From a virus: a DNA stretch of 64,000 bases. Below, one piece after another: positions 6,742-64,000 of this stretch. The translations under genes and the position numbers were made by a program. The stretch spans positions 1 to 64,000 of IMG/VR virus record IMGVR_UViG_3300042154_001567; one strand, written 5' to 3'. The notes under the pieces were generated by a model. That model saw nothing but the letters and a program-made list of their open reading frames with translations. It searched no databases and had not been told where the DNA came from. Positions within the stretch are counted from its first letter, which is position 1. Each line of letters starts with the position of its first letter.

Positions 6742-7719
6742 ATGAATAGTACGTTACAGGATATAATGGGAATGATTGCTAAGCGCAAGATAAAAGTTCC
6801 TACAGATAAAGACTACATAGTGGCTGCGGCATACACTGATACTCAAGAGGTGCTGAAGCCCCAACCAAAAATGGAAGCCAGTTTAATTAATATTGGTGCA
6901 CTAAAGAAATTTATTGGTACTGGAAATCAAGGTCCAACTGGAGCTACTGGCCCAACAGGTCCTCAAGGACCGCAAGGAGTTCAAGGTATACAAGGACAAA
7001 CTGGAGATCAAGGTCCTCAAGGATCTGCAGGTAACTCTGTAACTATACTTGGATCATATGCAAACTTAGCTGCATTTAATGCTGGAGCAGGAAGTTCACC
7101 TGGTGCTAATATAGGAGATGCATGGATACTTTTATCTGATGGTTCATTGATGAGCTGGAATGGTACAGTATGGTTTGACGCAGGAGATATAAAAGGACCT
7201 CAAGGTGAACAAGGACCGCAGGGTATTCAAGGAGTTCAGGGTATTCAAGGTATAAGTGGTACTTCTGGATTAGAAACTTATACAAGATATTCTCCAATTT
7301 TTCAAGCAACAGGAATGACTTTTACCGGAAGCGGGGCAACTTACCCTACGTATAATTCTTATTATATTAAATCAGGTTTGTTAGTTAGTTTTGTAATACA
7401 AATTGATTTTACAACAGTTACTAATTTTGGTACTGGTCAATATAAAGTCGCATTACCATTTGCTCCTGCTTTTGGATATAATCATTTTAATGGATGGATT
7501 TGGGCAGATCCTAATGTTGATCCAGACACAGGTACTGGACATACAATACTTAATGCAGACACTGCTGGTATTACAACTGTATTAGACTTACATTATTTAA
7601 AACAGTCTGGTGGAGCTAACTCTCCAATTAGAGAAGGATTATGGACACAAGCACTTCCTGTAACATTAACTTCAATTAGTAAAGCATATATTAACGGTAC
7701 TTATATTTGTACAACATAA
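6742..7719 (+). CDS. Collagen-repeat (Gly-X-Y) fibre/decoration protein
   Basis: Two GPQ/GIQ runs and a beta-rich C-terminal head domain. Confidence 0.8.
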   Translation: MNSTLQDIMGMIAKRKIKVPTDKDYIVAAAYTDTQEVLKPQPKMEASLINIGALKKFIGTGNQGPTGATGPTGPQGPQGVQGIQGQTGDQGPQGSAGNSVTILGSYANLAAFNAGAGSSPGANIGDAWILLSDGSLMSWNGTVWFDAGDIKGPQGEQGPQGIQGVQGIQGISGTSGLETYTRYSPIFQATGMTFTGSGATYPTYNSYYIKSGLLVSFVIQIDFTTVTNFGTGQYKVALPFAPAFGYNHFNGWIWADPNVDPDTGTGHTILNADTAGITTVLDLHYLKQSGGANSPIREGLWTQALPVTLTSISKAYINGTYICTT

Positions 7720-49449: not shown

Positions 49450-52400
49450 ATGGCACAACAAAATGAAAATCCTGGGACATCCTCTGTAAATACTAATTCA
49501 TTCATTAAAGGAATGAATAAAGATATCACGCAGGCAATGGAACCAAAAGAAAGTTGGTGGCATGCACGTAATGCAATGAATAATTCTACTGATGGAGATC
49601 TTGGTGTAATAGGTAATGAACCATCAAATTTACAATGTGGTGTTATACCTTATACAATTATTGGTGCTATACATAGATATGGTGATCAATGGATTGTATA
49701 TTCTACTGATGATATAAATTCTGAAATTGGAAGATTTGATGATAGTGAATGTAAGTATGAAGTTATTGTAAATGATCCTTGTTTAAATTTTAATAGAAAA
49801 CATTTAATAATTGGTGCAGCAAAAGAGAATTTTGATTGTACTTGGCAAGTATATTGGGATGATGGAAACAATCCTTCACGTTCATTAAACATTGATAAAG
49901 TTCCTTGGATTCAAACTGTGTCTTCTGCACCTGGTGATTCTTGTATTACTTTTGCTGATACAACGTCTTTAAATTGTGAGAAAATAAGATTAGCTCCTTT
50001 AGTAGATACACCTTGTGTTACTTTAAGTAAATCAATAGATGGTGGTATGTTACAGAATGGTGCATATCAAGCATTTATTGCTTATACAGAAAATGAACAA
50101 AAAGTAACTGATTATATTGGTGTTTCTAATATTCAAACATTATGGTCACATTCTGGTACAGCTGGTTCATTAAATGTTAAATTAAGTAATTTAGATAAAG
50201 ATTATGATTACTATGAGTTAGTATTACTTGTTAGAAATCAAGGTCAGATATATGCTAAACGCATAGGTCTTTATAGTACACAACAACAAGATATTAATAT
50301 TGATTATATTGATGATACATTAGTTGCTGTAAGTTTAAAAACAATACCTCAAAGAAGTCCTGCTTATGAAAAATCAAATGCAATGTATGTTGTAAATGAT
50401 TGGTTAATTAGACAAGGACCCGTAAGTCAATTTGATTTTAACTATCAACCAATAGCAAATGATATTAAAGTTAATTGGGTAGCAAATCAAATAAATGCTA
50501 GTTATTATCATTTAAGTGGTAATAAGATGGGATTCTTAAGAGATGAACAATATGCATTCTTTATTAGGTGGATTTATAACACAGGAGAAAGATCTTCTTC
50601 TTATCATATTCCAGGAAGAGCACCAAGGCCATTTACAACCCCTTCAGGAACATATCTTGAAACAGATACTATATACGGCAATAATGTGTTAGATGCTGCT
50701 GGAGATCCTTTATATAAGGTTTATAATACAGGAACAATTACAGCACAAAATTTAACTGAAGTTCAACCAGATGGTTCATTAGTTATTGCTAGAGGTGAAA
50801 TGGGATATTGGGAATCAACCGAAAGATATCCTGCTAATAGACCAGATATTTGGGGTGATCTTTGCGGTAAACCTATTAGACATCATAAGTTTCCTACTGA
50901 AGAAGTAGGAGGTGCAAATTCACCATTACATATAAGTACAACAGCTGGAGATTTAATTAATATCTTGGGTGTTGAATTTACAAATATTGGAAGACCAAAA
51001 AATAATGACGGAACATATATATCAAATGTAGTTGGTTATGAAATATTAAGAGGATCTAGAGCAGGTGCAAAATCTATTTTAGCAAAAGGGTTATTTAGAA
51101 ATATGCGTAAGTATACTATACCTAATGCAGAAAATCTAATAGGTAATTCTGTTCAAGGTTTATATCCTAATTATCCATACAATGATTTAAGACCGGATGT
51201 TTACTTTCATGATGGTGCTGCAAATTCTATCAATAGAACAGAAGGTTGTGATAACTATACTGAATCAATACGTGATTTTAAACCATTAGGTTCAGCACCT
51301 GCTATAGCCGGTGATCCATCTGGATATTCAAAAACAGTATTTAGTTTTTCTTCACCAGATTTAATGTTTACTAAACCTTTTTTAAATGCTTATGAAACAA
51401 GATTATATGGTGAAGTAAGTGGTAATTCAAGTGGTTATTTTAAAGCATCTGAGGATCATCCACAATTTAAATTATTAAGAAATGGTGCTGCAATAATAGC
51501 TTCTGTTATTGGTGTTGGTTATGCTATGCATAAAGTATTAGGAACAAGAAGTACAACAGTGGAAGGTGCTAGAGGAAATTTTGATTCATCAAGTTTTCTT
51601 ATGGCAGGTCTTTCAAGTGGATTTGGTCCAAACCCTCTTGTACTTGTTCCATATATAGTTGCAGGAATGGGAGCAGTTGGAGCACAATCAGCTGCTGCAG
51701 TAGTTATAGATGTATTACTTGGAGACGCTGCAGGATTAGCAGATCTTTATCTTACTGGTGGAACAGCAACATATTCAAAAGATATGCTTAATGCAGGAGC
51801 CGCTATTGCTGCTGGTGCTTTTCCTGGTGTAACAGGTGGTACTATAACTAAAACACAAGTTAATGATTCATCAGAATCATCATTACCTACAATTGTAAAG
51901 CTGTTTGTAGCTTCAACTATGGCTAAAACTAATATAGCAATTGGTGGAAATGAAATATTAGAATTAATTTATAACTTAATTAATAAATCTGATTTTGCAT
52001 TTAAATATAATTCTTATGGATTTTTTAATTCATATCAAAAAATTAATACAGGATTATTTAGAATTAAAAATACAGATTCAAATTATTTAGGTCAATCTTT
52101 TCAATCATTTGATAGTGGGAAGTATAAAATTAATAATTTATTTAGACCATCTACTGTAGCTGTTTCATTAAGTAATCCTGTAACGGAACCAAGTATAATT
52201 GATACATCAAGATTTACAATTGGGGGTTCTGTTAGTACTACTGGTAGTGTTAATGTTACAGATGGAAATATAACTAATCCATCAGTTAAACAAAAAACGC
52301 CTATATCAGCTTATTATGGTGCTCTTAAATTTAATTTTGATAATCAGTATGGTCAATTAGATGGCATTAAGCAAGTTCAAATGAGAGGTTGTGTAGAATA

Positions 52401-54891
52401 TTTAGATCCTACTAAACCTGATGCTTTTAAATATTCTAGTTCAGCTATATTTAGTGGTGATATATTTATTACTAGATATACTGAAAAAGTTATTATGCCT
52501 ATATTTGCTCAATATTTATTAGGACAACCTGATGAATTTACATATGATTATTCTCAACACGTTAATATACCATATCCAAGATTTTGGTTAAATTCTCAAA
52601 AATTTGATATGAGTACTTTAGCTGAGGAAATTGCTTCTCTTGGTTTTGCAAGTTCTGGTGAATTGGATAATGTTTTTCCTAATGATTTGTTTTATTTAGA
52701 TAGAGGATCAGATAGTTGTGCTAGTGGTTTAAGTGCAATCTTTGGTGGTAGTGGTGATCCTAATCCTAAGTTTGCTATGAGATATGCTTATATGTATACT
52801 CACGTTAATGGCATATTAGATTTCTTTGTAGAGTCTGAAGTTAACTTAGCTAATAGAGATTGGGAAGATAGAACAGAAGCAAGAATATATGATGTATATG
52901 GATATAATGATATAGATGAATTATTTCATGCACAAATAGAAAAGAAAGATAACTTCTATAAATATGATGAATCACTAAGTCCATCTAAATTTGTAACGCA
53001 GCTGGGTAGTTTTGGTGAAATTCAACCAAGATACTATGATCCATATACTGCAGAAAATTGTTATGTTAGTTATCCAAAAAGATTAATCTATTCATTACAA
53101 GCACAAAAGGAATCTAAGAAAGATTTTTGGAGAGTATTCTTACCATTCAATTATCAAGACTTTAAAAATAAAGTGAGTGTAATTAAACCTATTAATAAAA
53201 ATGGTGCTATTATATTCTTTCCTTTTTTATCTCCGCAAATGTTTCAAGGAGTAGATACTTTGAGAACATCTTTAGATACTAAACTTACTATTGGTGATGG
53301 TGGATTATTTAGTCAACCATTCCAAAATATTGTTAATGCAGATTTATCAAATGAGTATGGTTCATGTGAAAGTTTAAGAAGTGTTATGAATACACCTGTA
53401 GGTTTGTTTTTTATATCTCAAGCTCAAGGTAAAATATTTCACTTTACTGGACAAACATTAGATCCAATATCTAATGCAGGAATGAAATGGTGGTTTAATA
53501 AATACTTACCATCTCAACTTGTTAAACAATATCCTCAATTAGAAGCTTCACCATTGTCAGATAATCCTGTAGTTGGTGTTGGTTGTCAAACAATCTATGA
53601 TCCTAATGATGATATAGTTTACTTTATGAAAAAAGACTATAGAGTTAAAGCTACATATATTGCTGATGTTACATATACAGAAAATAGAGGATTTGCTTTA
53701 TTAGGAAACCCTATTACATTAGGTGATCCAATTTATTTTGATGATTGTTCTTGGACTGTAAGTTATGATCCTAAAGCTAAAGCTTGGATATCATTTCATG
53801 ATTGGCATCCAGAATTTGCATTACCTAGTATTAATCATTTCTTTACTACTAAGACTATGACTACTACTATTCCACAATGTCCTCCAGGTTATACATATAA
53901 TGCTGCTAATGGACTATGTGAACAATCAATCAATATTAGTGAGCGTGCTATTATTACAATAGAAGAAGTTAATTCTGTTATTAGTGGCGGATTTCCTAAT
54001 CCTTTTATTTGTAATTGTCCTCCGGGTTATACAAAAGTATTTTATAATTCTACAACCAATGTTTATACTTCACCAACTGGTATATGTAATAATATTAAAC
54101 CACCTATCTGTAGAAAAGTTACTTGTGCGTGTCCTATATCTCCTGTAGGTACAACAACTACAACAACAGGAAATTGTGATGATGTTTATTTAGTTGGAAA
54201 TCCAACATATGTAAATCCAAATCCAAGGATTTGTAATTATTTTAAATATGAATCTACACCAGCTAATTTTAAAGTTGGTTCATTTTGGAGACATAATTCA
54301 AGGTGTGATAGTTTTGCTAATTTTTATGGTACTAATTATCCATGGGAAGTAGAATTAGTTTCTAATACAGGACAAATGGTTAATACTGTTAGAAGTATGG
54401 AATACCAATTAGAAACTTATGTATATAAAGGAGACATGGGATTTGCTTGTAATGATGATAGATGGGAAGATTTAAACTTTAACTTTGACCAATCAATTAT
54501 TTATAATAATGAGCAGGTATCTGGTTTATTACAATTAACTCCAACACCATATAATAATCCTGTATTAGAATTGAGTTATCCTATTATTAATACAAATAGT
54601 ATAAATATACTATGTTCTAAAGTAGAACAGAAATATAGATTCAATCAGTTCTATGATATCACTAAAGATAGAGGAGAATTTACAAATGCTGAACAGGCAA
54701 TATGGGATACTCAACCAAATGGATATATTAAAGTTTTAAATACTATAAACTTAAATTATAATAAACCTCCATTACAACATAAGAAGTTTAGACATTACTA
54801 TACTAATGTTATTTTGAGAAGAGTTAAATCAGAAAATAGAAAGATGTTATTAAGATTGAATAACACTAAATTACTTTTATCAATGAGATAA
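49450..54891 (+). CDS. Tail muzzle/stabilization protein (P22 gp10-like)
   Basis: 1813 aa; NSFIKGMNKD..ARN N-terminus, VYW.DG.NP.R, WT.SY....WISFHDW. Confidence 0.8.
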   Translation: MAQQNENPGTSSVNTNSFIKGMNKDITQAMEPKESWWHARNAMNNSTDGDLGVIGNEPSNLQCGVIPYTIIGAIHRYGDQWIVYSTDDINSEIGRFDDSECKYEVIVNDPCLNFNRKHLIIGAAKENFDCTWQVYWDDGNNPSRSLNIDKVPWIQTVSSAPGDSCITFADTTSLNCEKIRLAPLVDTPCVTLSKSIDGGMLQNGAYQAFIAYTENEQKVTDYIGVSNIQTLWSHSGTAGSLNVKLSNLDKDYDYYELVLLVRNQGQIYAKRIGLYSTQQQDINIDYIDDTLVAVSLKTIPQRSPAYEKSNAMYVVNDWLIRQGPVSQFDFNYQPIANDIKVNWVANQINASYYHLSGNKMGFLRDEQYAFFIRWIYNTGERSSSYHIPGRAPRPFTTPSGTYLETDTIYGNNVLDAAGDPLYKVYNTGTITAQNLTEVQPDGSLVIARGEMGYWESTERYPANRPDIWGDLCGKPIRHHKFPTEEVGGANSPLHISTTAGDLINILGVEFTNIGRPKNNDGTYISNVVGYEILRGSRAGAKSILAKGLFRNMRKYTIPNAENLIGNSVQGLYPNYPYNDLRPDVYFHDGAANSINRTEGCDNYTESIRDFKPLGSAPAIAGDPSGYSKTVFSFSSPDLMFTKPFLNAYETRLYGEVSGNSSGYFKASEDHPQFKLLRNGAAIIASVIGVGYAMHKVLGTRSTTVEGARGNFDSSSFLMAGLSSGFGPNPLVLVPYIVAGMGAVGAQSAAAVVIDVLLGDAAGLADLYLTGGTATYSKDMLNAGAAIAAGAFPGVTGGTITKTQVNDSSESSLPTIVKLFVASTMAKTNIAIGGNEILELIYNLINKSDFAFKYNSYGFFNSYQKINTGLFRIKNTDSNYLGQSFQSFDSGKYKINNLFRPSTVAVSLSNPVTEPSIIDTSRFTIGGSVSTTGSVNVTDGNITNPSVKQKTPISAYYGALKFNFDNQYGQLDGIKQVQMRGCVEYLDPTKPDAFKYSSSAIFSGDIFITRYTEKVIMPIFAQYLLGQPDEFTYDYSQHVNIPYPRFWLNSQKFDMSTLAEEIASLGFASSGELDNVFPNDLFYLDRGSDSCASGLSAIFGGSGDPNPKFAMRYAYMYTHVNGILDFFVESEVNLANRDWEDRTEARIYDVYGYNDIDELFHAQIEKKDNFYKYDESLSPSKFVTQLGSFGEIQPRYYDPYTAENCYVSYPKRLIYSLQAQKESKKDFWRVFLPFNYQDFKNKVSVIKPINKNGAIIFFPFLSPQMFQGVDTLRTSLDTKLTIGDGGLFSQPFQNIVNADLSNEYGSCESLRSVMNTPVGLFFISQAQGKIFHFTGQTLDPISNAGMKWWFNKYLPSQLVKQYPQLEASPLSDNPVVGVGCQTIYDPNDDIVYFMKKDYRVKATYIADVTYTENRGFALLGNPITLGDPIYFDDCSWTVSYDPKAKAWISFHDWHPEFALPSINHFFTTKTMTTTIPQCPPGYTYNAANGLCEQSINISERAIITIEEVNSVISGGFPNPFICNCPPGYTKVFYNSTTNVYTSPTGICNNIKPPICRKVTCACPISPVGTTTTTTGNCDDVYLVGNPTYVNPNPRICNYFKYESTPANFKVGSFWRHNSRCDSFANFYGTNYPWEVELVSNTGQMVNTVRSMEYQLETYVYKGDMGFACNDDRWEDLNFNFDQSIIYNNEQVSGLLQLTPTPYNNPVLELSYPIINTNSINILCSKVEQKYRFNQFYDITKDRGEFTNAEQAIWDTQPNGYIKVLNTINLNYNKPPLQHKKFRHYYTNVILRRVKSENRKMLLRLNNTKLLLSMR

Positions 54892-57464
54892 TGGAGAAAA
54901 AAATACAACATAAAGAAAGTAGAGGATTACCCGGTGGTCCAAATGAGATGTTTACTTATACCACAGGTATATTTTCTACAGAAGGATTTAGGATGGATAG
55001 TCCAGATGTTAATAACTATGAAAACATTATACCATCTGGATCTATTACTATGAAAGAAAAAGATGGTAGCCCTTTAAGAAAGGGACCAATCTATGGTGTA
55101 GATAATCTAGGTAATGAACAGTTAATGTATCCAGGATATGATTATGAATTTCCCGGTACACAAGTAAAAGAAACATTGCTAGCTAAAATGGGTGGTGGCT
55201 TATTAGATAAAACTATTAAGTGTTCTAGTTGTGGTTGGGAATGGAAAGCTGCTGATGGTGGTTCAGATATTATGGATTGTCACAAGTGTGGTGGGGAAGG
55301 TATGGTAAAAGCACAAAAAGGAGGAAGAGTTTCTATTCCTGTAACTGATCGTAATGATCCAAGACTTAAAAACTACAGTGATAGTTTGAGTGTTTTTAAT
55401 ACAGGTACTAACTTGAAAAATAAACTTATGAATTTTCATAATAGTTTGCCAAATGGATTAGAAAAAGAGAAAGAAGTTTTTGGTGATGATAATTATGAAA
55501 AAGGAGTAAAATATAATATTGCGTTAGTTGAAGGTAAGGATAACAAAGATAAATATAGAAAGTTAAGAGGTGACTATGTTAAGTATATAAATGAACATTT
55601 TGGCACTAGGACATCACCCATGATAGATTATACTAGACAAGTAGGTACATATTCTCCTAATGCAGGTGGTTCATCAGAATGGGTTTATAATTTTAAAAAA
55701 CCTGAACAACCTTATTATCTTGAAAGATCAAACATGGATACAATTCCATCAAGAGGTATTTCAAATATTGATGCAAATGATAATCTTTCTTTAAAACCTA
55801 TGTCAGTTGATAGCAATCAATACGTTCCTGATAACAAAGTTTATGTTATGAGAAATCCAAATGGTACTGAATCTATTATAGATAACGTTGAAGCACATTC
55901 AATGATTAAAAGAGGAGTTCCTGGTATATATAGCAGAAAGGTTGATAATATAAAAAGAGAAAATATTAGTAATCCTTATGATGAAAGTATTGCTCAAAAT
56001 TATCAAACAGGAGGTTCTACAGGTGAAGAAGATTTAATGACTGAATATGGCAAAAGAATTGTAAAAAAGGTTGCTCAGTATGGTGATAAACTAAGACCTG
56101 CATCTTTTTCAAACAAAGCAGCTGATATGGCTGAAGCAAAAGGATTTGGATTTGGTGAAGATAATCAAGGACCATTAGATGCTGTAAGACATGCAAGTGC
56201 TGCAGCAAGTGTTGCATCTAATTTACCTGTACCATCATTTATGAATAATATTTTGTCAGGATCTGAACAAGCAATAAGAGAATATGGATCAAGAGCATTA
56301 GGTGCTTTATATGAAGTAGCAAACTATAATTCTGAAGGTAGAGATATGGATTTTTATAATAATAAGATTGGTGCACAAATAGGTTCTATACCAGGACTTA
56401 CAGATGAGCAACGTTTAAAGCTTATCAATAATGCACTACTTAATAAGCAACTACAAATAGATAATAACAAACGTATCAAACCTAAGCAAGAAGGTGGAGA
56501 ACAAGAAGATACTCCATGGACAGCATATTTAAATCCAGCAAACTGGGGTACATCTAGATATGATGATGCGGGTACATTTAAAAAAGCATTTAGAGCAGCA
56601 CGTATAGAAGGAGACTCTGATTTCTTATATAAAGGTAATAGGTATTCAACAGAATTAAAACCTGCTGCTCCTCCTTTAAAAGGAATAACACCAGAACTTT
56701 TAATAAGACAAGCATATAGAGAATCTACATTTAACCCCAATGCTGTTTCACCTGCTGGATTTAAAGGTATAGGTCAAATTGGAAAGGCTGTAATAAAAGA
56801 TTATAAAAAAGCTAATAATATTACAGGTGAAATAGATCCTTTTAATATAAAGCAAAACTCTGATGTCCAAAAATATACAATGAATGAATTGTATAATTCA
56901 AGTTTTATTGATAAACCGGGACAATCAGAAGAAGTAAGGCTTGCTAAAACTTTAGCTTCTTATAATTTAGGTAGGACTAAAGTTTCTGATTTATTAAATG
57001 ATTTAAAAGAAGAGGGTGTTGATATATATAATAGTTTAGATTGGATTAATAAATTACCTTCAGAATCAAGAAAATATATTAATGATATATTATTACAAAA
57101 AAATACTACTTTTAACAGTGATTTTTCTAAAGCATTAAGTGATAAAAAGAATATACCAATAAAACGTTTATATGGTTTTAGAGATGGTGGTGAATCAAAA
57201 CCAGGTCCATTAATGAAGGCATATAACAGACTTCCAATGGAAAAGAAAATGGGAGGTGCTATTGTCAATAAAAAACAATTTGGTGGCCAATTAAATTCTG
57301 GTAACATTACCATGTATAAAGATTATATAAAAGGTAATATTGAAAATGAAACAGAAGCAGTAAAAAACTATGATAAGTTAAATAGAATTTATTATAGTAA
57401 AGCAAAAGAACTAGGAATGAGTGCAGCAAATTACATAATGACGCATGTTGCAGACAACTCTTAA
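54891..57464 (+). CDS. Modular cargo/ejection protein: Zn ribbon, DAxRH domain, lytic transglycosylase
   Basis: CSSC..CHKC; DAVRH..MDFYNN; RESTFNPNAVSPAG.KG.GQI..LASYN.G. Confidence 0.75.
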   Translation: MEKKIQHKESRGLPGGPNEMFTYTTGIFSTEGFRMDSPDVNNYENIIPSGSITMKEKDGSPLRKGPIYGVDNLGNEQLMYPGYDYEFPGTQVKETLLAKMGGGLLDKTIKCSSCGWEWKAADGGSDIMDCHKCGGEGMVKAQKGGRVSIPVTDRNDPRLKNYSDSLSVFNTGTNLKNKLMNFHNSLPNGLEKEKEVFGDDNYEKGVKYNIALVEGKDNKDKYRKLRGDYVKYINEHFGTRTSPMIDYTRQVGTYSPNAGGSSEWVYNFKKPEQPYYLERSNMDTIPSRGISNIDANDNLSLKPMSVDSNQYVPDNKVYVMRNPNGTESIIDNVEAHSMIKRGVPGIYSRKVDNIKRENISNPYDESIAQNYQTGGSTGEEDLMTEYGKRIVKKVAQYGDKLRPASFSNKAADMAEAKGFGFGEDNQGPLDAVRHASAAASVASNLPVPSFMNNILSGSEQAIREYGSRALGALYEVANYNSEGRDMDFYNNKIGAQIGSIPGLTDEQRLKLINNALLNKQLQIDNNKRIKPKQEGGEQEDTPWTAYLNPANWGTSRYDDAGTFKKAFRAARIEGDSDFLYKGNRYSTELKPAAPPLKGITPELLIRQAYRESTFNPNAVSPAGFKGIGQIGKAVIKDYKKANNITGEIDPFNIKQNSDVQKYTMNELYNSSFIDKPGQSEEVRLAKTLASYNLGRTKVSDLLNDLKEEGVDIYNSLDWINKLPSESRKYINDILLQKNTTFNSDFSKALSDKKNIPIKRLYGFRDGGESKPGPLMKAYNRLPMEKKMGGAIVNKKQFGGQLNSGNITMYKDYIKGNIENETEAVKNYDKLNRIYYSKAKELGMSAANYIMTHVADNS

Positions 57465-57524
57465 ACCTTAAAAATTAGTAAATCTATTGATTTATTTGTA
57501 TATTAATAATATAATATAAGTACC

Positions 57525-59237
57525 GTGAAAGTAAACAAAATAAGTTTAAAGCAAGAAGGAGGACAAGCTACTGAACAAGTTGGGGCACAACCACAACAAT
57601 CAGTAGATCCTGCTATACAACAAATTTCAGATTTTATTTCTCAAGCAATTAACCAAGGACAAAATGCTGCAGAAGTTGTTATGTCTTTAGTTCAGCAACA
57701 AGTTGATCAACAAACTATTGGTCAAGCTTTAATGATGAATGGTTTTGAAGAAGATGATATTATGTCTTTGTTTGAACAAATGAGTCAAGGTCAACAACCA
57801 GAAGAACAAGTTGGTGGTGAACCTGATCCTGCTAATTTAAATCAAACTCCGGAACAATTAACTCAAGATGAAAGAATGCATGCTGATGATATGTCTGCAA
57901 AAGAAACTGAAGAAGCGGGATTATCTTTAGGTAAATCTGGTATAGAAATTAAACCTGAAAATGAAGGTAAGTTTACTAGATGGGCTCAAGCACGCGGTAT
58001 GTCTGTACAAGAAGCTGCAAGTAAAGTTATGGCAAATACAGATGAGTATCCGCCAGCTGTAGTTAAGATGGCAAACTTTGCTAAGAATGCTGCCGGATGG
58101 AATAAAGAATATGGTGGTGAAAATTATCAAATGGGTGGTGTTCCTCAAGGTAAAGTAGCAGCAGTCAATAATGTATCTGTAGGTAATAAAGATATGAATT
58201 GGCAAAGGGCTCCATTATATATTAATCCAATGGAATTTGAATATACAAATGATAACTTTAGTTTAGGTAAAGCTGCTGCTGTTGCTTATGGTGGTTATAA
58301 AGAATTTTTAAGTGGTGCTGATGAAAATAAAGATGGTATTAAAGATGGTTTCTTTAGAGATGGTTCTAAAAAATCTGCAATAAGGGATGCATCTAAAGGT
58401 AATTACTATAATTATAAAATTACTCAGGATGCTAATGATATAAATAAACAAAATTCAATGATACCTACTGGAGATAATGGTCAACCCGCTCCTAGTATGT
58501 TTAATACAAAACCAGCAACATCAATGATGAATGCAATTCCTTCTGCTTCAACTAATATTCCACAAAAATCATTTAAACAATGGTATAGTTCAGGGGATGC
58601 TATTAGAAATCAAGGTAAAAGTTCTGATCAACTTAAGTCTGAATATGATGCTTATCTTAATAATGGATACATGTATGGTGGAGATATAATGCAATTTGGT
58701 GGTCAACTAATGTCCAAAGATGAATGGATGAGTGAAAATGGAAGGGGTATGATTGGACAAGAGTTAATAGATGAAAATGATTATCAAACTTATGTATCTA
58801 CAATGGAACCCATTCCTGCATCTCAAACAACAAGTATACCAGCATTTCAACCAATAAAAGTAGAAAGAACAAATAATTTTGAAGGTGGTCTTAATAGATT
58901 TATAGATAGTCCGGGTGTACAAGGCTATGGAAAATTGTCTAACTTTGCAGTAAAAGGTGCGGATGTTATTAATGATTATTTTAGAGATAAAAATATTAAT
59001 CAAGCAAGAGAAGATAACTTTAATAAATTGGGTGCTGATTTTCAATACTCTACTGCAGAAGATCCTTTTAATAAAAGAGGACTATTTGATATTAATACAG
59101 GAACTGCAGGAAGTGAAGGAGATAGAACAACTGGTTTATATATGAGCAAATACGGTGGTGAAAAGAATACTGTAAATGTTGATTCAAATTTATTAGCAAA
59201 ATTAATTGCAGCGGGAGCTGACATTGAAATATTATAA
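57525..59237 (+). CDS. Gln-rich modular cargo/ejection protein
   Basis: GTG start; low complexity; IKPENEGKFT..ANFAKNA..W module. Confidence 0.7.
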   Translation: MKVNKISLKQEGGQATEQVGAQPQQSVDPAIQQISDFISQAINQGQNAAEVVMSLVQQQVDQQTIGQALMMNGFEEDDIMSLFEQMSQGQQPEEQVGGEPDPANLNQTPEQLTQDERMHADDMSAKETEEAGLSLGKSGIEIKPENEGKFTRWAQARGMSVQEAASKVMANTDEYPPAVVKMANFAKNAAGWNKEYGGENYQMGGVPQGKVAAVNNVSVGNKDMNWQRAPLYINPMEFEYTNDNFSLGKAAAVAYGGYKEFLSGADENKDGIKDGFFRDGSKKSAIRDASKGNYYNYKITQDANDINKQNSMIPTGDNGQPAPSMFNTKPATSMMNAIPSASTNIPQKSFKQWYSSGDAIRNQGKSSDQLKSEYDAYLNNGYMYGGDIMQFGGQLMSKDEWMSENGRGMIGQELIDENDYQTYVSTMEPIPASQTTSIPAFQPIKVERTNNFEGGLNRFIDSPGVQGYGKLSNFAVKGADVINDYFRDKNINQAREDNFNKLGADFQYSTAEDPFNKRGLFDINTGTAGSEGDRTTGLYMSKYGGEKNTVNVDSNLLAKLIAAGADIEIL

Positions 59238-59239
59238 CT

Positions 59240-61591
59240 ATGGCAAAAATTAAAATAAATAGTTTACCTGCAGGCTTTAAATTAGTTAATGGTAAAGTAG
59301 AAGAAGATCAAATGATGAGAGAAGGTGGTTATGTAACTGGTGATCAAGCTGGTTATGGATTAGTTACTTTACCACAGGAGTATTATAATAATGCTAATAT
59401 AAATACCACAAGAGATGAATCTGTTAGATACAGTTTATCTAGCGTACCTAGAGACAAAGCAAATATTGAAGCTGAGGGTGGTGAAACGGTATTAACTGAT
59501 TTAAACAATGACAATCAATTTGGTCTGTATAATATAACAGGACCAAGACACTCTAAAGGTGGTGTGCCAATGTTTTTACCAGAACAATCTTTTATCTATT
59601 CTGATACAGATAAGATGAGATTTAATCAAGAAGAGCTTACTGAGTATGGTATAGAGACTAAATTAAAAATGACTCCTGCTCAAGTATCTAAAAGATATGA
59701 TCTTAATAAGTACTATGGTACTATGAAAGATCAATTTGCTGATGAGATAACAGCGCGTAGTTCTGAGATTATGTTAAAGAAAAACATGATGGGTTTGTCT
59801 AAGTTAGCATTTGGTCAAGAACTTAAAAAGAAATTTGATGATGGTGTACCTTTAGCGGCTCATCCATACTTAGTTTCTATTGGAGAAGATCCAATTGAGT
59901 TTACTGCTAAGGTGGAAAACATTACTAAGAAGCAAGCTCAGATGAAAGCCTTTGCTGCTTTGCCTCCTGATCAACAACAACAATTAATATTGTTACAAGA
60001 AATGATGGCACAGATGGATCAACAACAACCTCAGCAAGAACAGTCTTTTGAAGATCCTTCAATGCAAGAACAACAATTAGCTATGGCTGATGAAGATGTT
60101 ATGGATAATGAGGAAATGGCAAGATATGGTAAAGAAATAGGAATGTATCAAGATGGTAAAGAAACTCCTAAATTTAAAGCAGATAAAGAAGCTCAATTAA
60201 GAAAAGAAAAAATTTCAAGTCAAAATCAAAAAGGACAAGGTTCTGTATCTATTTATGGTGAAGATCTTATGGGTCAAGAAAAAGCAATGAATGAAAGTCC
60301 TATTGGTTTATATAAATATGGTAGATTATCACAAGGTAATAGACCTGAATTTCAAAATAGAATTGGAAATGCATATGGTTCTGCAGATATTGCTTTACCA
60401 GAATCAAAAGCTGATTTTTATGATAGATGGGGAGATGTTGTAGCAACAATACCAGGATTTGATTATGATAATCCAGATGCTCCTCAGTGGGGACAGTTTC
60501 AAAGAAAAGCTGAAGATACTAGAAAAAAAGAACACATTGCTGCATTTGGTAATCTTGATAATTATATACCTTACTTTAAAGAAAAAGGTGATAAAGGTTA
60601 TGTTAAGGGTGAAGGATTTGATAGTAAATTAGGATTACGTACATACAATACACCACGTTTTAAACTAGGTGATATACAACCTAGTAATGCTACAATTAAT
60701 AGTAATGTTCCACCAGTATCAAAAACTCCTTTAGAAGTTCCACCAGTTAACGAATATATGCCACCTCAACCAGAATGGTGGAGACAAGATGTTAATAATC
60801 TAAATGCATTAAGTTTAATTGATGATAATTTATATTTACCATGGGCACCAGATGCTGCACCAGCTAAAGTAGATTATGTATTAGATGATTGGAGAGGTAA
60901 TGCTAATGCAAATTTAGCAGCTGCAAATACTATGGCTCAAGCATTAGGTGCTGTCGGTGGACCACAAGCTGTTGCTGCTTCAAATATTCAAGGTACGGCT
61001 ATGGATAACATTGCTCAAGGTATTAATAATGTCAATACCAATAATGTGCGTATAATGAATCAAGTAGCTCCAATGCAATCACAATTGAATATGCAAGTTG
61101 ATGCTATCAATCAAGCTAGAAATATGAAAGTTTATGATGATACTCAAAAGACTTTGCAATCTAGTGATAACTTTCAAAATTGGAAGATTGGTAAAGAGAA
61201 TGAATTATTTAATGCTGCACTTACTAATAGAGCTAATACAGCTAATTTAAATTCAATATATGATAATTATTCAATTGATCCTACAACTGGAGGTATTATT
61301 GGATTTAAAGGTGCTAAAGCTCTTCAAAAAGTAGGTAAACAACCTGATTTAATTAAAAACTTTTATGATCAAGTTGTTGATTATGAAAGACAAACGGGTA
61401 AACCAATGCCAGATGCTCTTATTAATAAATTATTTCCAGGACAAACAGCAATTGATCCTGATATAACTAATGCACAATTAGAGGCACAAAGAAGAGGTGC
61501 TCCAATAGGTTATCCACAGACTCAGAGTAAATCAGGAAAAGAAATAAAAAGAATGGTGGTGCCATTCTATACAGGAAAGATGGGAGCATAA
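59240..61591 (+). CDS. Cargo/ejection protein
   Basis: NIEAEGGE..GPRH.KGGV..FIYSD domain; Ala/Asn/Gln-rich helical C-terminus. Confidence 0.7.
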   Translation: MAKIKINSLPAGFKLVNGKVEEDQMMREGGYVTGDQAGYGLVTLPQEYYNNANINTTRDESVRYSLSSVPRDKANIEAEGGETVLTDLNNDNQFGLYNITGPRHSKGGVPMFLPEQSFIYSDTDKMRFNQEELTEYGIETKLKMTPAQVSKRYDLNKYYGTMKDQFADEITARSSEIMLKKNMMGLSKLAFGQELKKKFDDGVPLAAHPYLVSIGEDPIEFTAKVENITKKQAQMKAFAALPPDQQQQLILLQEMMAQMDQQQPQQEQSFEDPSMQEQQLAMADEDVMDNEEMARYGKEIGMYQDGKETPKFKADKEAQLRKEKISSQNQKGQGSVSIYGEDLMGQEKAMNESPIGLYKYGRLSQGNRPEFQNRIGNAYGSADIALPESKADFYDRWGDVVATIPGFDYDNPDAPQWGQFQRKAEDTRKKEHIAAFGNLDNYIPYFKEKGDKGYVKGEGFDSKLGLRTYNTPRFKLGDIQPSNATINSNVPPVSKTPLEVPPVNEYMPPQPEWWRQDVNNLNALSLIDDNLYLPWAPDAAPAKVDYVLDDWRGNANANLAAANTMAQALGAVGGPQAVAASNIQGTAMDNIAQGINNVNTNNVRIMNQVAPMQSQLNMQVDAINQARNMKVYDDTQKTLQSSDNFQNWKIGKENELFNAALTNRANTANLNSIYDNYSIDPTTGGIIGFKGAKALQKVGKQPDLIKNFYDQVVDYERQTGKPMPDALINKLFPGQTAIDPDITNAQLEAQRRGAPIGYPQTQSKSGKEIKRMVVPFYTGKMGA

Positions 61592-61650: not shown

Positions 61651-64000
61651 ATGGCAACATACGTACCAGGAGCAGAAACATATTTACCCGACATTAAACC
61701 ATTTACACCAGACTATAAATTTTTGTCTGCTGTACTTGATGTCAGAACAGATAAGTATAATACTAATTGGAAGGCAACTAATGATCTTTACAATAAAGTT
61801 GTCTATGCAGATTTGTCTAGAACAGATACCAAAGAACAAAGAGACCAATATATAAATCAATTAGCTCCATCTTTAGAGAAGATCTCAGGGATGGATTTAT
61901 CATTGGCACAAAATGCAGATTCTGCTAAGTCAGTGTTCGCTCCATTTTTTGAAGATGATTTAATAGTTAGTGATATAATGCATACTTCTAACTATAGAAA
62001 AGAAATGGATTATGCAAATAGACTTATTGATTCTCCTGATCAAAAGCAAAGAGAAAAATATTCTCAAGATGGAGTAAAAGGTTTACAATATCATATGGAG
62101 GATTTTATTAACTCTTCTCCTGATAAAGCAATTAAAATGGGATTACCTAAGTTTGTTGAAGATGCTGATTTATTTGAATTAGCACAAGAAACATTAGGTG
62201 CAATGAAACCTCCTTTAAAAGTAAAGGTAGATCATTATGGTATGAATCCCAATGGTACAGTAAATACTGATTGGATTATTACAGAACAGAATGGTAATTT
62301 AGTTACTGGTCCTGCATTACAATATATTCAAAAAGCTTTATTAGATGATCCAAGAGTTGTTAGACATTATCAAAATCAAGCTTTTGTAAGAGGTAGAGAT
62401 TTTGCTGCAGAAGGTATGGCTAATGGAATATTTGCAACTAAAGAAGAAGGTCAAGCTGCTTGGGCATCTGAAACTATTAATAGAATTAATCAACAAAATG
62501 AATATTATTTAAAGAAAGATATAAAAGCTTTAGCTAATGCTCAAGATGTAAATGTTAGATGGGATAACTATAAAATAAGTAATGGTGTTGTTCCGGGTTC
62601 AGATGATGAAAAAGCAATGCTTGCAGAACGTTCATCTTATGAAGCTACTAAAGCAGCTTTAGATGCAAAGTTTAATATTCAAAAAACAGCTAATGCACCC
62701 GTTAAAGATTTTGAAGGAACATTAAATAAAGCTTATAATCTTTTAATGCAAAATAATATAGCTAAAGATATGCAAGCTGCTGCTCAAGCTTATGGTGCTA
62801 GAGATATGGAGTATACTATGAAAGTTAATGAGTATGCTAAACAACAAAAGCAGTTTCAATTTGATATGGCTAAAGTTACACAACAACATTTAAATGCAAT
62901 TGAGTTAGCTAATATTAAAGGTTCAATTGATTTTGAATTGGCAAAAGCAAAAGGTGAACTTGTATCTCAAAATCCTTTATTAAATACATTATTAGGTGGT
63001 GAAGCTTCTATTGGCGATGCTAGAAATACAGAATTTAAAGTAGGTCCAGATGGATTGCCTGATCCAAATACAGAAATGTATACTAAATTAATTATTGATT
63101 ATGATAAACCAAGAAACGAAGCTAGAGATAAACAACTTAATGTTTTAACTAATGTATTAACATTTTTAAATCCTGCAGGAGATATAGATAATTCTGGTAA
63201 ACCTACACAAAAGTATACAGTAAAAGTGGAAGGTAAAGATTTTATAGGAACAATTGATCAAATAAAAAATAAACTTGGTACAAAAGACGAAAAGGGTAAT
63301 TATATATATGCATCTGATATAGATAATTTGTATCAACAACAATCTAAAATATTAGATGATCCAAAACAAATGGCTAAGTATCCAGGTAAAGGTAAGACCA
63401 AAACTTATGATGATTTGTATAAACAAATATATTCTGATAAAGGTCTTAATACAACAATTGAAGTACTTGATAAAACATTTCAAACTGTATCTAATAAATA
63501 TAAAAATACTCATGATAAAGCTATAGAATTAGTTAAAGGTGAAGATGCTAACGTTAAATCTTTAATGGAAAATGCAGGTATGCCGGGAATATATAAAACA
63601 CTTCCTAGTGGTGTACAACGTGAATTAACTAAACCTGAATATATTAATAATGTAATATCACTTATTAATCAAGGAAAAGTTAAAAATATAGATTTAATTG
63701 GATGGGATACTGGTACTAGTAATAGCAAGTATATGCATACTGTTAAAAAAGGTACAGGTCAATATTATACTGTTAGAGATGGTCAAGGTGGTACTGAACA
63801 AAGAGAACGTATGACAACAGTTACCGAATTAGATAAAGCTGCTATTGAAGCTGAAGCTGGTTTAGTATATGATAAAATTAAAGCAAAAACTAATAGTGCT
63901 TTAACAGGACATCTTGGTGATAAATTTGAAACAGGAACATTTAAAGGTACTTTGTATGGAAGAACTGGTGCTTCTGATATGACTATATCACCAGTTTATA
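61651..64000 (+). CDS. Large cargo/ejection protein (truncated by window end)
   Basis: Read manually: MATYVPGAETYLPDIKPFTPDYKFL..., apparently open to the window end; absent from the ORF track because it has no stop. Confidence 0.8.
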   Translation, partial: MATYVPGAETYLPDIKPFTPDYKFLSAVLDVRTDKYNTNWKATNDLYNKVVYADLSRTDTKEQRDQYINQLAPSLEKISGMDLSLAQNADSAKSVFAPFFEDDLIVSDIMHTSNYRKEMDYANRLIDSPDQKQREKYSQDGVKGLQYHMEDFINSSPDKAIKMGLPKFVEDADLFELAQETLGAMKPPLKVKVDHYGMNPNGTVNTDWIITEQNGNLVTGPALQYIQKALLDDPRVVRHYQNQAFVRGRDFAAEGMANGIFATKEEGQAAWASETINRINQQNEYYLKKDIKALANAQDVNVRWDNYKISNGVVPGSDDEKAMLAERSSYEATKAALDAKFNIQKTANAPVKDFEGTLNKAYNLLMQNNIAKDMQAAAQAYGARDMEYTMKVNEYAKQQKQFQFDMAKVTQQHLNAIELANIKGSIDFELAKAKGELVSQNPLLNTLLGGEASIGDARNTEFKVGPDGLPDPNTEMYTKLIIDYDKPRNEARDKQLNVLTNVLTFLNPAGDIDNSGKPTQKYTVKVEGKDFIGTIDQIKNKLGTKDEKGNYIYASDIDNLYQQQSKILDDPKQMAKYPGKGKTKTYDDLYKQIYSDKGLNTTIEVLDKTFQTVSNKYKNTHDKAIELVKGEDANVKSLMENAGMPGIYKTLPSGVQRELTKPEYINNVISLINQGKVKNIDLIGWDTGTSNSKYMHTVKKGTGQYYTVRDGQGGTEQRERMTTVTELDKAAIEAEAGLVYDKIKAKTNSALTGHLGDKFETGTFKGTLYGRTGASDMTISPVY

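Follow-up and report, generated by a model that had tools for sequence, protein, structure and literature searches.

Gly-Gly seam peptides mark the module borders of putative cargo proteins in an uncultured crAss-like phage

Introduction

Three neighbouring proteins of an uncultured crAss-like phage are punctuated by short peptides that end in two glycines. Are these peptides the cleavage sites of a polyprotein, joints or handles in chains that stay whole, or relics of past recombination? The proteins, here called A, B and C, are encoded one after the other in a stretch of 64,000 nucleotides (the window), taken from the start of an incomplete viral contig of 75.8 kb (IMG/VR record IMGVR_UViG_3300042154_001567; CheckV completeness, 65%). 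Working from the letters of the window, the original prediction described a recurring [AKYFMS]-[QKREM]-x-G-[GK] motif in A, B and C and proposed that interchangeable effector modules are loaded into the head and cut apart, or tagged for loading, at these sites, as Gly-Gly motifs are cut by Ulp1/adenain-type proteases. We find that the seam-punctuated pattern is real, and a search of the literature on crassvirus cargo processing and on Gly-Gly sites in phage ejection proteins returned no relevant description of it. Such proteins are of wider interest because crassviruses, which rank with the most abundant phages known, have several megadaltons of protein to load, store and eject. Below, the recurring peptides are called seams.

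Results

Enrichment of the motif

Every motif copy listed for the open reading frames (ORFs) starting at 54891 (A), 57525 (B) and 59240 (C) was found in place when the translations were checked. The pattern as first formulated occurs 18 times in the 2,210 amino acids (aa) of A, B and C and five times in the 15,491 aa of the 37 other ORFs of the window (Fisher P = 9e-13). As this pattern had been fitted after the fact, a second, less fitted test was added, in which only the context upstream of Gly-Gly dipeptides was considered; 15 of 26 dipeptides in A to C carry that context versus 3 of 105 elsewhere (P = 2.5e-10). When the residues of each ORF were shuffled 2000 times, no shuffle reached the number of copies observed in A (8, with 1.3 expected) or in B (6, with 0.9 expected), and the motif is thus commoner in both proteins than in shuffled sequence. 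For C, 4 copies were observed and 0.9 expected if the G-K variants are counted, a number reached by 20 of 2000 shuffles, and with a strict Gly-Gly there is no enrichment at all (1 observed, 1.1 expected). By the shuffles, the case is therefore a strong one for A and B but a weak one for C, where recurrence holds in part only: MREGG and one degenerate tandem are conserved. The capsid, portal and muzzle proteins, which had been described as free of the recurring motif, contain no copies. Seam density is 0.93 per 100 aa in A and 1.05 in B; it is at background (0.057) in the giant, zincin-bearing proteins encoded further downstream, which indicates that the seam is not a processing site of those proteins themselves.

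A logo of 609 distinct Gly-Gly contexts from homologues has K, A, Y, M or F at position -3 and Q or K at position -2, and of 256 distinct seams, 39% have Glu directly after the second Gly. The consensus is [K/A/Y/M/F]-[Q/K/E]-x-G-G, frequently followed by Glu. The codons used for Gly-Gly at seams are the same as at other Gly-Gly pairs, suggesting that selection acts on the peptide; a role of the seams as recombination signals at the level of DNA was ruled out on this ground.

Exchange of modules at the seams

The homologues of A are mosaic. We found 75, of 471 to 1499 aa, which share 75 to 90% identity with A but over only 5 to 60% of its length. Across six syntenic viral contigs the protein varies from 539 to 1403 aa, and the flanking genes are near-identical in the five closest. 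Breakpoints, taken as internal ends of BLASTP segments of at least 50% identity (n = 125), were counted as seam associated if they lay at most 6 residues from a seam. Among the internal ends of the high-scoring segment pairs, 81 of 125 (65%) lie near a seam, versus 13% expected; so do 23 of 53 distinct breakpoint positions (P = 9e-8), although P values are indicative only because the breakpoint sequences are related. In a close relative of B (on the contig of L002), a cassette of 93 aa sits exactly between KQDGG and YQMGG of a tandem seam, whose counterpart in the window is KEYGG-ENYQMGG. This filled slot implies that tandem seams are empty slots and that a cassette supplies its own C-terminal seam. 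The proposals that modules are interchangeable and that, in A, their breakpoints coincide with the motif are both borne out by these alignments, and the seam pattern recurs independently in the genes of relatives and in a complete genome.

The modules exchanged in this way are diverse. Pfam families in 45 aligned homologues of A include SLT, LysM, YkuD, SET, PG_binding_1, DUF5754 and a DUF6973-like module. A motif scan of all 75 homologues found HExxH cassettes in 20, where about 1 would be expected by chance, as estimated from residue frequencies.

Several further observations were made on these homologues. The HExxH cassettes fall into subtypes (HEFSH, HETGH, HEFGH, HE[RK]VH, HEYAH and HE[IV]GH) that share an E/H-x-x-[AR]-x-[LM]-R...G element some 70 to 100 residues downstream; the homologues concerned are P0006, P0024, P0026, P0027, P0032-P0039, P0043, P0052, P0053, P0055, P0061, P0064-P0066 and P0075. 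Among the cassettes of P0013, P0042, P0073, P0076 and P0077, some are DUF5754 and DUF5872 by Pfam, and the 1450 aa of P0073 contain 20 copies of the seam. In a complete relative (G001), 3' of the RNA-polymerase block (L008:4273-4557), an ORF of 94 aa consists mostly of four seam-like peptides (CREGG, MRKGG, YKMGG and KYRGGG); it matches no family and does not occur in the contig studied here.

Location of the seams in protein A

Protein A opens with a leader ending in GLPGG (aa 12-16), followed by a conserved beta-rich N-domain (30-98), a CxxC...CxxC Zn ribbon (103-140), variable helical and small modules, a DUF6973-like stretch (407-515; E = 1.3e-4, score under the Pfam cut-off), an SLT lytic transglycosylase (597-702; Pfam E = 1.1e-9) and a conserved helical C-terminal module (801-857). 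Seams had been placed at the borders of these modules, and the placement is correct: the Zn ribbon lies between AKMGG and AQKGG, the DUF6973-like stretch (formerly called the DAVRH domain) between YQTGG and KQEGG and the SLT domain between KQEGG and FRDGG. An AlphaFold2 model (m124183b82669; 45-sequence alignment), which has a mean predicted local distance difference test score (pLDDT) of 63, predicts that the seams lie in linkers. Its low-confidence stretches (99-105, 140-174, 352-456, 518-540 and 766-800) jointly hold 7 of 7 motifs, each in a stretch of pLDDT <50 between folded blocks. The N-terminal beta domain, the Zn ribbon and the SLT domain are among these blocks, the first and last of the three having pLDDT of 85 to 97.

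Conservation differs from seam to seam. Gly-Gly is invariant at KKMGG in 33 homologues and at NKK[QE]xGG in 34, and relatives of A have about 70 additional residues between KKMGG and KQFGG. At the second seam, AQKGG, the second Gly is replaced by Lys in 10 homologues (AQxGK), kept in 7 (AQxGG) and replaced by other residues in the rest. Gly-Gly is hence not obligatory at P2-P1 of every site, as the C seams ARYGK and YQDGK also show.

Leaders and chain ends of B and C

B starts with MKVNKISLKQEGG, C with MAKIKINSLPAGFKLVNGKVEEDQMMREGG and gp45 of phage crAss001, a cargo protein considered below, with MAKKKIKRRGKMPPNIFDTGG. These leaders resemble each other, as far as short sequences read by eye and with no statistic can be compared. 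A seam follows the leader in each protein (aa 12-16 in A, 9-13 in B, 26-30 in C and 17-21 in gp45), and the leader of C and its Gly-Gly are kept across representatives clustered at 50% identity. The suggestion that the motif tags proteins for loading is accordingly still plausible for B, C and gp45, each of which opens with such a leader and then a Gly-Gly motif. At the other end of C, 119 homologues terminate in ...PFYTGKMG and a last residue that varies (G, A, S, T, Y or R). As there is nothing to join at the end of a chain, seam-like peptides in this position, like the Gly-Gly behind the leader of C, would fit a handle and not a joint that needs to be cut between modules. The motif SKSGK of C (nucleotide 61526) is not conserved in relatives. 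In B, the IKPENEGKFT module lies between GKSG and KEYGG, as had been described.

Neither B nor C was assigned to a Pfam family. The conserved core of C (window positions 59420-60040) has invariant residues E77, E79, E82, G101, H104, G107 and G108 (EAEGGET...GPRHSxGGVP) in 79 diverse homologues; they look like an active or metal-binding site, and the family comprises about 1,600 representative clusters. Residues 240 to 290 (window 59960-60110) form a Gln-rich, low-complexity linker (LPPDQQQQ...QQQPQQEQ) just before ARYGK/YQDGK, which draws spurious poly-Q profile matches (TATA-box-binding protein and huntingtin). Foldseek and VIA-align searches with a good model of C (pLDDT 81) returned no fold match that convinces: the rows obtained, NSF-N-like and helical-hairpin, were weak (Z <7 throughout). 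Equivalence of the N-terminal domain of C to the portal-binding domain of gp45 (425-552) was considered but is not claimed, as BLASTP, hhalign and a PDB profile search all failed to connect them.

Genomic setting

The late genes of the window are crAss-like: they include a terminase (PHROG 6681), a P22-like portal, a Crass_capsid protein (PF23898) and a muzzle protein (PF25731). The closest isolates share only 23 to 29% identity in the capsid protein, and a tblastn search with protein A against 50,697 phage records gave zero matches. The position of the muzzle gene fixes where the cargo block sits (Table 1). Genes A, B and C lie directly 3' of it and 5' of the virion RNA-polymerase block, as in the crAss001 order gp44-gp45-gp46-gp47. 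At this position crAss001 encodes the cargo proteins gp45 (C1) and gp46 (C2) and then the RNA-polymerase-associated gp47, gp49 and gp50, all of which were found in the virion (PMC10172136). By analogy, A, B and C are probably virion cargo (ejection) proteins that are packed in the particle and injected. The ORF that follows C occupies the position of gp46, to which it has a weak collinear match that is N-terminal only, and it has no motif enrichment. The giant ORF beyond it carries a DFDID motif in the copy of the complete relative. Far upstream, at the start of the rightward late block, a 325-aa ORF (6742-7719) contains collagen triple-helix repeats (PF01391, E = 1.8e-9; 15% Gly).

Table 1. 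Coordinates of the cargo genes, their seams and neighbouring features (window numbering, continued along the contig beyond 64,000)
Feature	Position	Strand	Remarks
Muzzle protein gene	49450..54891	+	PF25731 crAss_MUZ, E = 6e-29; 1813 aa; 0 motif copies
Cargo gene A	54891..57464	+	857 aa
A seam AKMGG (aa 98-102)	55182..55196	+	N-domain/Zn ribbon border; 22 homologue breakpoints; pLDDT <50 over aa 99-105
A seam AQKGG (aa 141-145)	55311..55325	+	After Zn ribbon; 26 breakpoints
A seam YQTGG (aa 371-375)	56001..56015	+	Within low-pLDDT stretch aa 352-456
A seam KQEGG (aa 532-536)	56484..56498	+	Before SLT block; 14 breakpoints; pLDDT <50 over aa 518-540
A three-seam cluster FRDGG (763-767), KKMGG (785-789), KQFGG (795-799)	57177..57287	+	Between SLT and C-terminal module; pLDDT <50 over aa 766-800
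Cargo gene B	57525..59237	+	570 aa; GTG start
B seam KQEGG (aa 9-13)	57549	+	Translation, motif scan
B module IKPENEGKFT...WNKEYGGENYQ (aa 138-202)	57936..58130	+	Homologous to crAss001 gp45 374-433
B tandem seam KEYGG/YQMGG (aa 194-205)	58104-58139	+	Alignment with five relatives
B tandem seam YMYGG/MQFGG (aa 382-393)	58668-58703	+	Alignment with five relatives
B seam SKYGG (aa 541-545)	59145	+	Translation, motif scan
Cargo gene C	59240..61591	+	783 aa
C conserved leader	N-terminus	+	MAKIKINSLPAGF...; translation
C seam MREGG (aa 26-30)	59315	+	Behind leader
C conserved core (aa 61-265)		+	pLDDT >90 (AlphaFold2 model m4884f0343627)
C degenerate tandem seam ARYGK/YQDGK (aa 294-307)	60119-60160	+	Low-pLDDT stretch; after Gln-rich linker
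C end ...PFYTGKMGA	61574-61588	+	After conserved C-terminal half
Next ORF after C	61651..64000 in window; stop at contig base 64839	+	1062 aa
Giant ORF beyond window	Contig 64881-75832+	+	>3650 aa, open at contig end; 4502 aa in complete relative
Zincin-like HEAFH in giant ORF	Contig 71001-71015	+	Conserved YHEAFH helix and downstream EYYEEY helix; zincin region at about 70.4-71.6 kb of the contig

Comparison with gp45 of crAss001

Residues 138 to 202 of B are homologous to residues 374 to 433 of gp45 (BLASTP, E = 3e-6; hhalign, E = 2.4e-4, probability 44%, with 42% identity over 60 columns). In the alignment, the tandem seam WNKEYGG-ENYQMGG of B is matched by WNAFGG-WLNTQGG of gp45 (NAFGG-WLNTQ-GG, aa 424-435). 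The homology is limited to this one module of 60 to 65 residues, and A and C have no significant match to gp45 by BLASTP, hhalign or profiles. Residues 425 to 552 of gp45 were reported as ordered density on the portal wing, in one segment (PMC10172136). The residues flanking G428 and those flanking G435 are therefore both within that one reported segment, which argues against cutting there. The same study proposed that gp45 is stored partly unfolded and ejected from N to C terminus, and the peptides that it reports span no seams (PMC10172136). Neither the motif nor processing is mentioned, and 'cleav', 'proteoly' and 'protease' are absent from its text (PMC10172136).

Searches for a protease

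A scan of the window's structural module (~35 ORFs) with Pfam and PHROGs found no protease, and no prohead protease was detected between the portal and capsid genes, where the ORF looks, from its sequence, like an acidic, helix-rich scaffold. Searches with PF02902 (C48) and PF00770 (C5) gave no match at E <= 1 in the contig, in the complete relative (118,325 bp, with terminal repeats) or in a 95%-complete relative, a negative that leaves aside the ASFV-type (African swine fever virus) family C63 and the poxvirus family C57, neither of which was searched. PF03412 (C39) likewise had no match in the contig or the two near-complete relatives. Leaders of the double-glycine type that are cut by C39 peptidase transporters have the consensus LSxxELxxIxGG, and were rejected as a model because PF03412 is absent and the leaders observed here (MAKIKINSLP...MREGG), in our reading, do not fit.

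The earlier remark that no cognate protease is visible thus holds within the window. About 7 kb past its end, in contrast, the giant ORF has a zincin-like HExxH module, in a region reading ...GVRVGAFVL...TVNGTLFTGAKSPFKYHEAFHGVFRML...EQEYYEEYLADEF. All of 120 homologues of this ORF (57 to 92% identity) keep the YHEAFH motif and a downstream Glu-rich EYYEEY helix unchanged, and gp47 of crAss001 has TTYHEAFHVVF at aa 2157. The module is a candidate co-packaged protease, and its conservation in a giant cargo protein keeps cleavage of the seams in consideration. Pfam assigned neither this region nor the HExxH cassettes to a peptidase family (one matrixin match, E = 0.1), and phmmer against the PDB found nothing for the zincin region. 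The nearest ESM Atlas clusters of the giant ORF carry polyvalent-protein domains (score 0.92, a lead only). Domains found in some of its homologues are ART-PolyVal, AlkB-like and PF08719, and a second module, with HEQDH, occurs in 21 of the 120.

A, B and C themselves contain no HExxH, and a hidden Markov model of the HExxH cassette found nothing in the contig or the complete relative. As both have seam-rich cargo, the optional cassette is not a general processing enzyme and was ruled out as a universal one. The non-structural genes of the complete relative (~23.7-51.3 k) encode a DUF2201_N putative metallopeptidase that has a VWA domain, and also a protein that matches AAA-ATPases weakly. Both genes lie outside the part covered by the contig, and a Cpn10 (GroES-like) protein is also encoded among these genes.

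Discussion

Our results suggest that the seams may be uncut, sequence-specific joints or handles of cargo proteins built like beads on a string. We give this reading, for proteins known here from their genes alone, a probability of about one in two. Each cargo protein would be a conserved frame with exchangeable cassettes, and each cassette would end in a short seam peptide that breaks secondary structure. Only at seams, then, could a module be gained, lost or exchanged with its neighbours left unharmed, and two seams back to back would be an empty slot. Left uncut, as we infer for this phage, the seams might serve as flexible joints, perhaps as handles, while the chain is being loaded and stored and when it is later driven out through portal and tail. 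Such threading of beads on a string agrees with the proposal made for gp45 of crAss001.

Several observations weigh against this reading. Conserved residues flank the Gly-Gly on both sides and seams follow N-terminal leaders, which gives them the look of protease sites and propeptides, and a purely passive hinge would have no need of conserved -3 and -2 positions. A zincin-like module is present in the neighbouring giant cargo protein, and HExxH cassettes are present among the homologues of A. The evidence from crAss001 concerns one tandem seam only and was obtained through the residue range stated in the paper rather than through coordinates. Other gp45 seams (208-211, 262-265, 330-333 and 371-374) lie between the tail-bound and portal-bound pieces and could be cut without contradicting the map.

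In a rival explanation, A, B and C would be polyproteins, cut by a protease at or beside Gly-Gly once they are in the procapsid or have been ejected into the host, so that the modules are freed and the short leaders removed as propeptides. Cutting might be done by the giant protein's zincin, by the optional zincin cassettes, by a host enzyme or by the DUF2201-type metallopeptidase that belongs to the replication module. We consider this a serious but less probable explanation than uncut seams. In its favour are a sequence-specific motif that shows preferences to either side and is found at nearly all module borders, and seams behind similar leaders in A, B, C and gp45; the modules also seem to be aimed at different compartments, with cell-wall enzymes beside SET and Zn-ribbon modules. 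The invariant YHEAFH module of the adjacent giant protein and of gp47, the excess of HExxH cassettes over chance and the DUF2201_N metallopeptidase with its VWA domain and AAA-like companion supply possible enzymes. There is also precedent, since processing of polyvalent proteins has been predicted for their own zincin domains and DdrB of phage P1 is cut before packaging; however, the virion RNA polymerase of phage N4 has a zincin domain and yet is packaged unprocessed (PMC5512222).

Other evidence is unfavourable to cutting. The tandem seam of gp45 that is homologous to that of B is inside the segment reported as ordered in the virion, the C-terminal motif of C has nothing to release, and the second Gly is replaced by Lys and other residues at one seam. 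The zincin-bearing giant proteins have the motif at background only, the optional zincin cassette is missing from two seam-rich genomes, and no C48, C5 or C39 peptidase was found in the contig or its near-complete relatives. Cutting by an Ulp1/adenain-type protease before injection, as originally proposed, is not supported by these findings, and for cutting inside the particle in general the available evidence leans against. A narrower possibility is that the YHEAFH zincin cuts the seams in trans, in the capsid or just after ejection, freeing cell-wall enzymes and effectors and removing loading leaders; we regard it as slightly less probable again than cutting by any of the proposed enzymes.

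It is also conceivable, though rather unlikely, that the seams are passive scars, that is, a functionless linker that some ancestral cassette brought along and that duplication and recombination then spread, any flexible Gly-rich stop being tolerated. The predicted position of the seams of A in disordered linkers would suit this, and so would the loss of the second Gly at one seam and the distinct form that every orthologous seam retains (AKMGG, AQxG[GK], KKMGG and K[QE]FGG), with no convergence on one consensus. Scars would not be expected, however, to persist from the window phage to crAss001 and across 50%-identity clusters while their flanks diverge, to keep an invariant Gly-Gly at KKMGG and NKK[QE]xGG or to occur at chain ends, where no linker is required; moreover, the interdomain linkers of other large virion proteins in the window lack the motif. 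Chance or composition acting on a loose pattern, which the post hoc fit, the barely enriched C and the weak variants SKSGK and ARYGK might suggest, is refuted for A and B by the shuffles, by the Gly-Gly contexts and by the clustering of the breakpoints of A homologues at seams; the recurrence in relatives' genes and a complete genome also speaks against it, and it is very improbable.

Whether the seams act as uncut joints or are cut, they offer a simple rule for parsing otherwise unannotatable cargo proteins into modules and a concrete, mutable target for finding how cargo is loaded, threaded or cut. They also explain how close phages carry very different injected payloads, as with the forms of A from 539 to 1403 aa. 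If a co-packaged zincin did cut the seams, crassvirus cargo would be a true polyprotein payload system with swappable cassettes, and the seams, as its cleavage sites, would be, as far as we know, the first code for polyprotein processing to be defined in phage proteins that are injected.

Among known systems, the closest is the cargo of crAss001 (Bayfield et al. 2023, PMC10172136; PDB 7QOG and related entries), whose genes likewise lie directly 3' of the muzzle gene and 5' of the RNA-polymerase block. Several aromatic-Gly-Gly peptides (AYGG, AFGG twice and AYGG) occur in gp45, as does an MAKKKIK... leader followed by TGG; a further seam of gp45, whose full-length chain is about 91 kDa, is at aa 560-563. 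Unlike crAss001, the window phage has three genes in place of the single gp45-like gene; A has a lytic transglycosylase and variable cassettes that gp45 does not have, and the consensus is [KAYMF]-[QKE]-x-G-G in the window phage and A-[FY]-G-G in gp45.

Polyprotein processing at Gly-Gly-X is known from ASFV, where pS273R cuts pp220 and pp62, and from adenovirus precursors, which are cut by adenain. A, B and C resemble these as candidate structural polyproteins with sites ending in Gly-Gly, and YQTGG of protein A is similar to the Q-T-G-G end of SUMO. They differ in that neither the contig nor its near-complete relatives have a C48 or C5 peptidase and in that the second Gly is dispensable at one seam. 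The internal or ejection proteins of podoviruses (gp14, gp15 and gp16 of T7; gp7, gp16 and gp20 of P22) and the internal proteins of T4 are stored in the capsid and ejected ahead of the DNA, and those of T4 have a short N-terminal capsid-targeting sequence that is removed by the prohead protease. Like A, gp16 of T7 has an SLT-type transglycosylase (PHROG 342, 'internal virion protein with endolysin domain'). Unlike the cargo proteins described here, those of T7, P22 and T4 have fixed architectures, with no cassette slots and no repeated seam peptide.

The polyvalent proteins described by Iyer et al. (2017) are large, multidomain proteins that are delivered with the DNA and have freely recombining effector domains, of which the zincin-like HExxH module is the commonest (PMC5512222). 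Neither the word 'linker' nor a junction peptide occurs in that text (PMC5512222). The homologues of A vary in architecture in the same manner (SLT, LysM, YkuD, SET, PG_binding_1 and DUF5754 modules, with HExxH in 20 of 75), the homologues of the giant ORF have ART-PolyVal and AlkB-like domains, and the layout of HExxH and Glu helix fits the zincins of polyvalent proteins. A, B and C differ from polyvalent proteins in having no peptidase module of their own, and their cargo modules are small (40 to 230 aa) and held between conserved N- and C-terminal modules that form a fixed frame.

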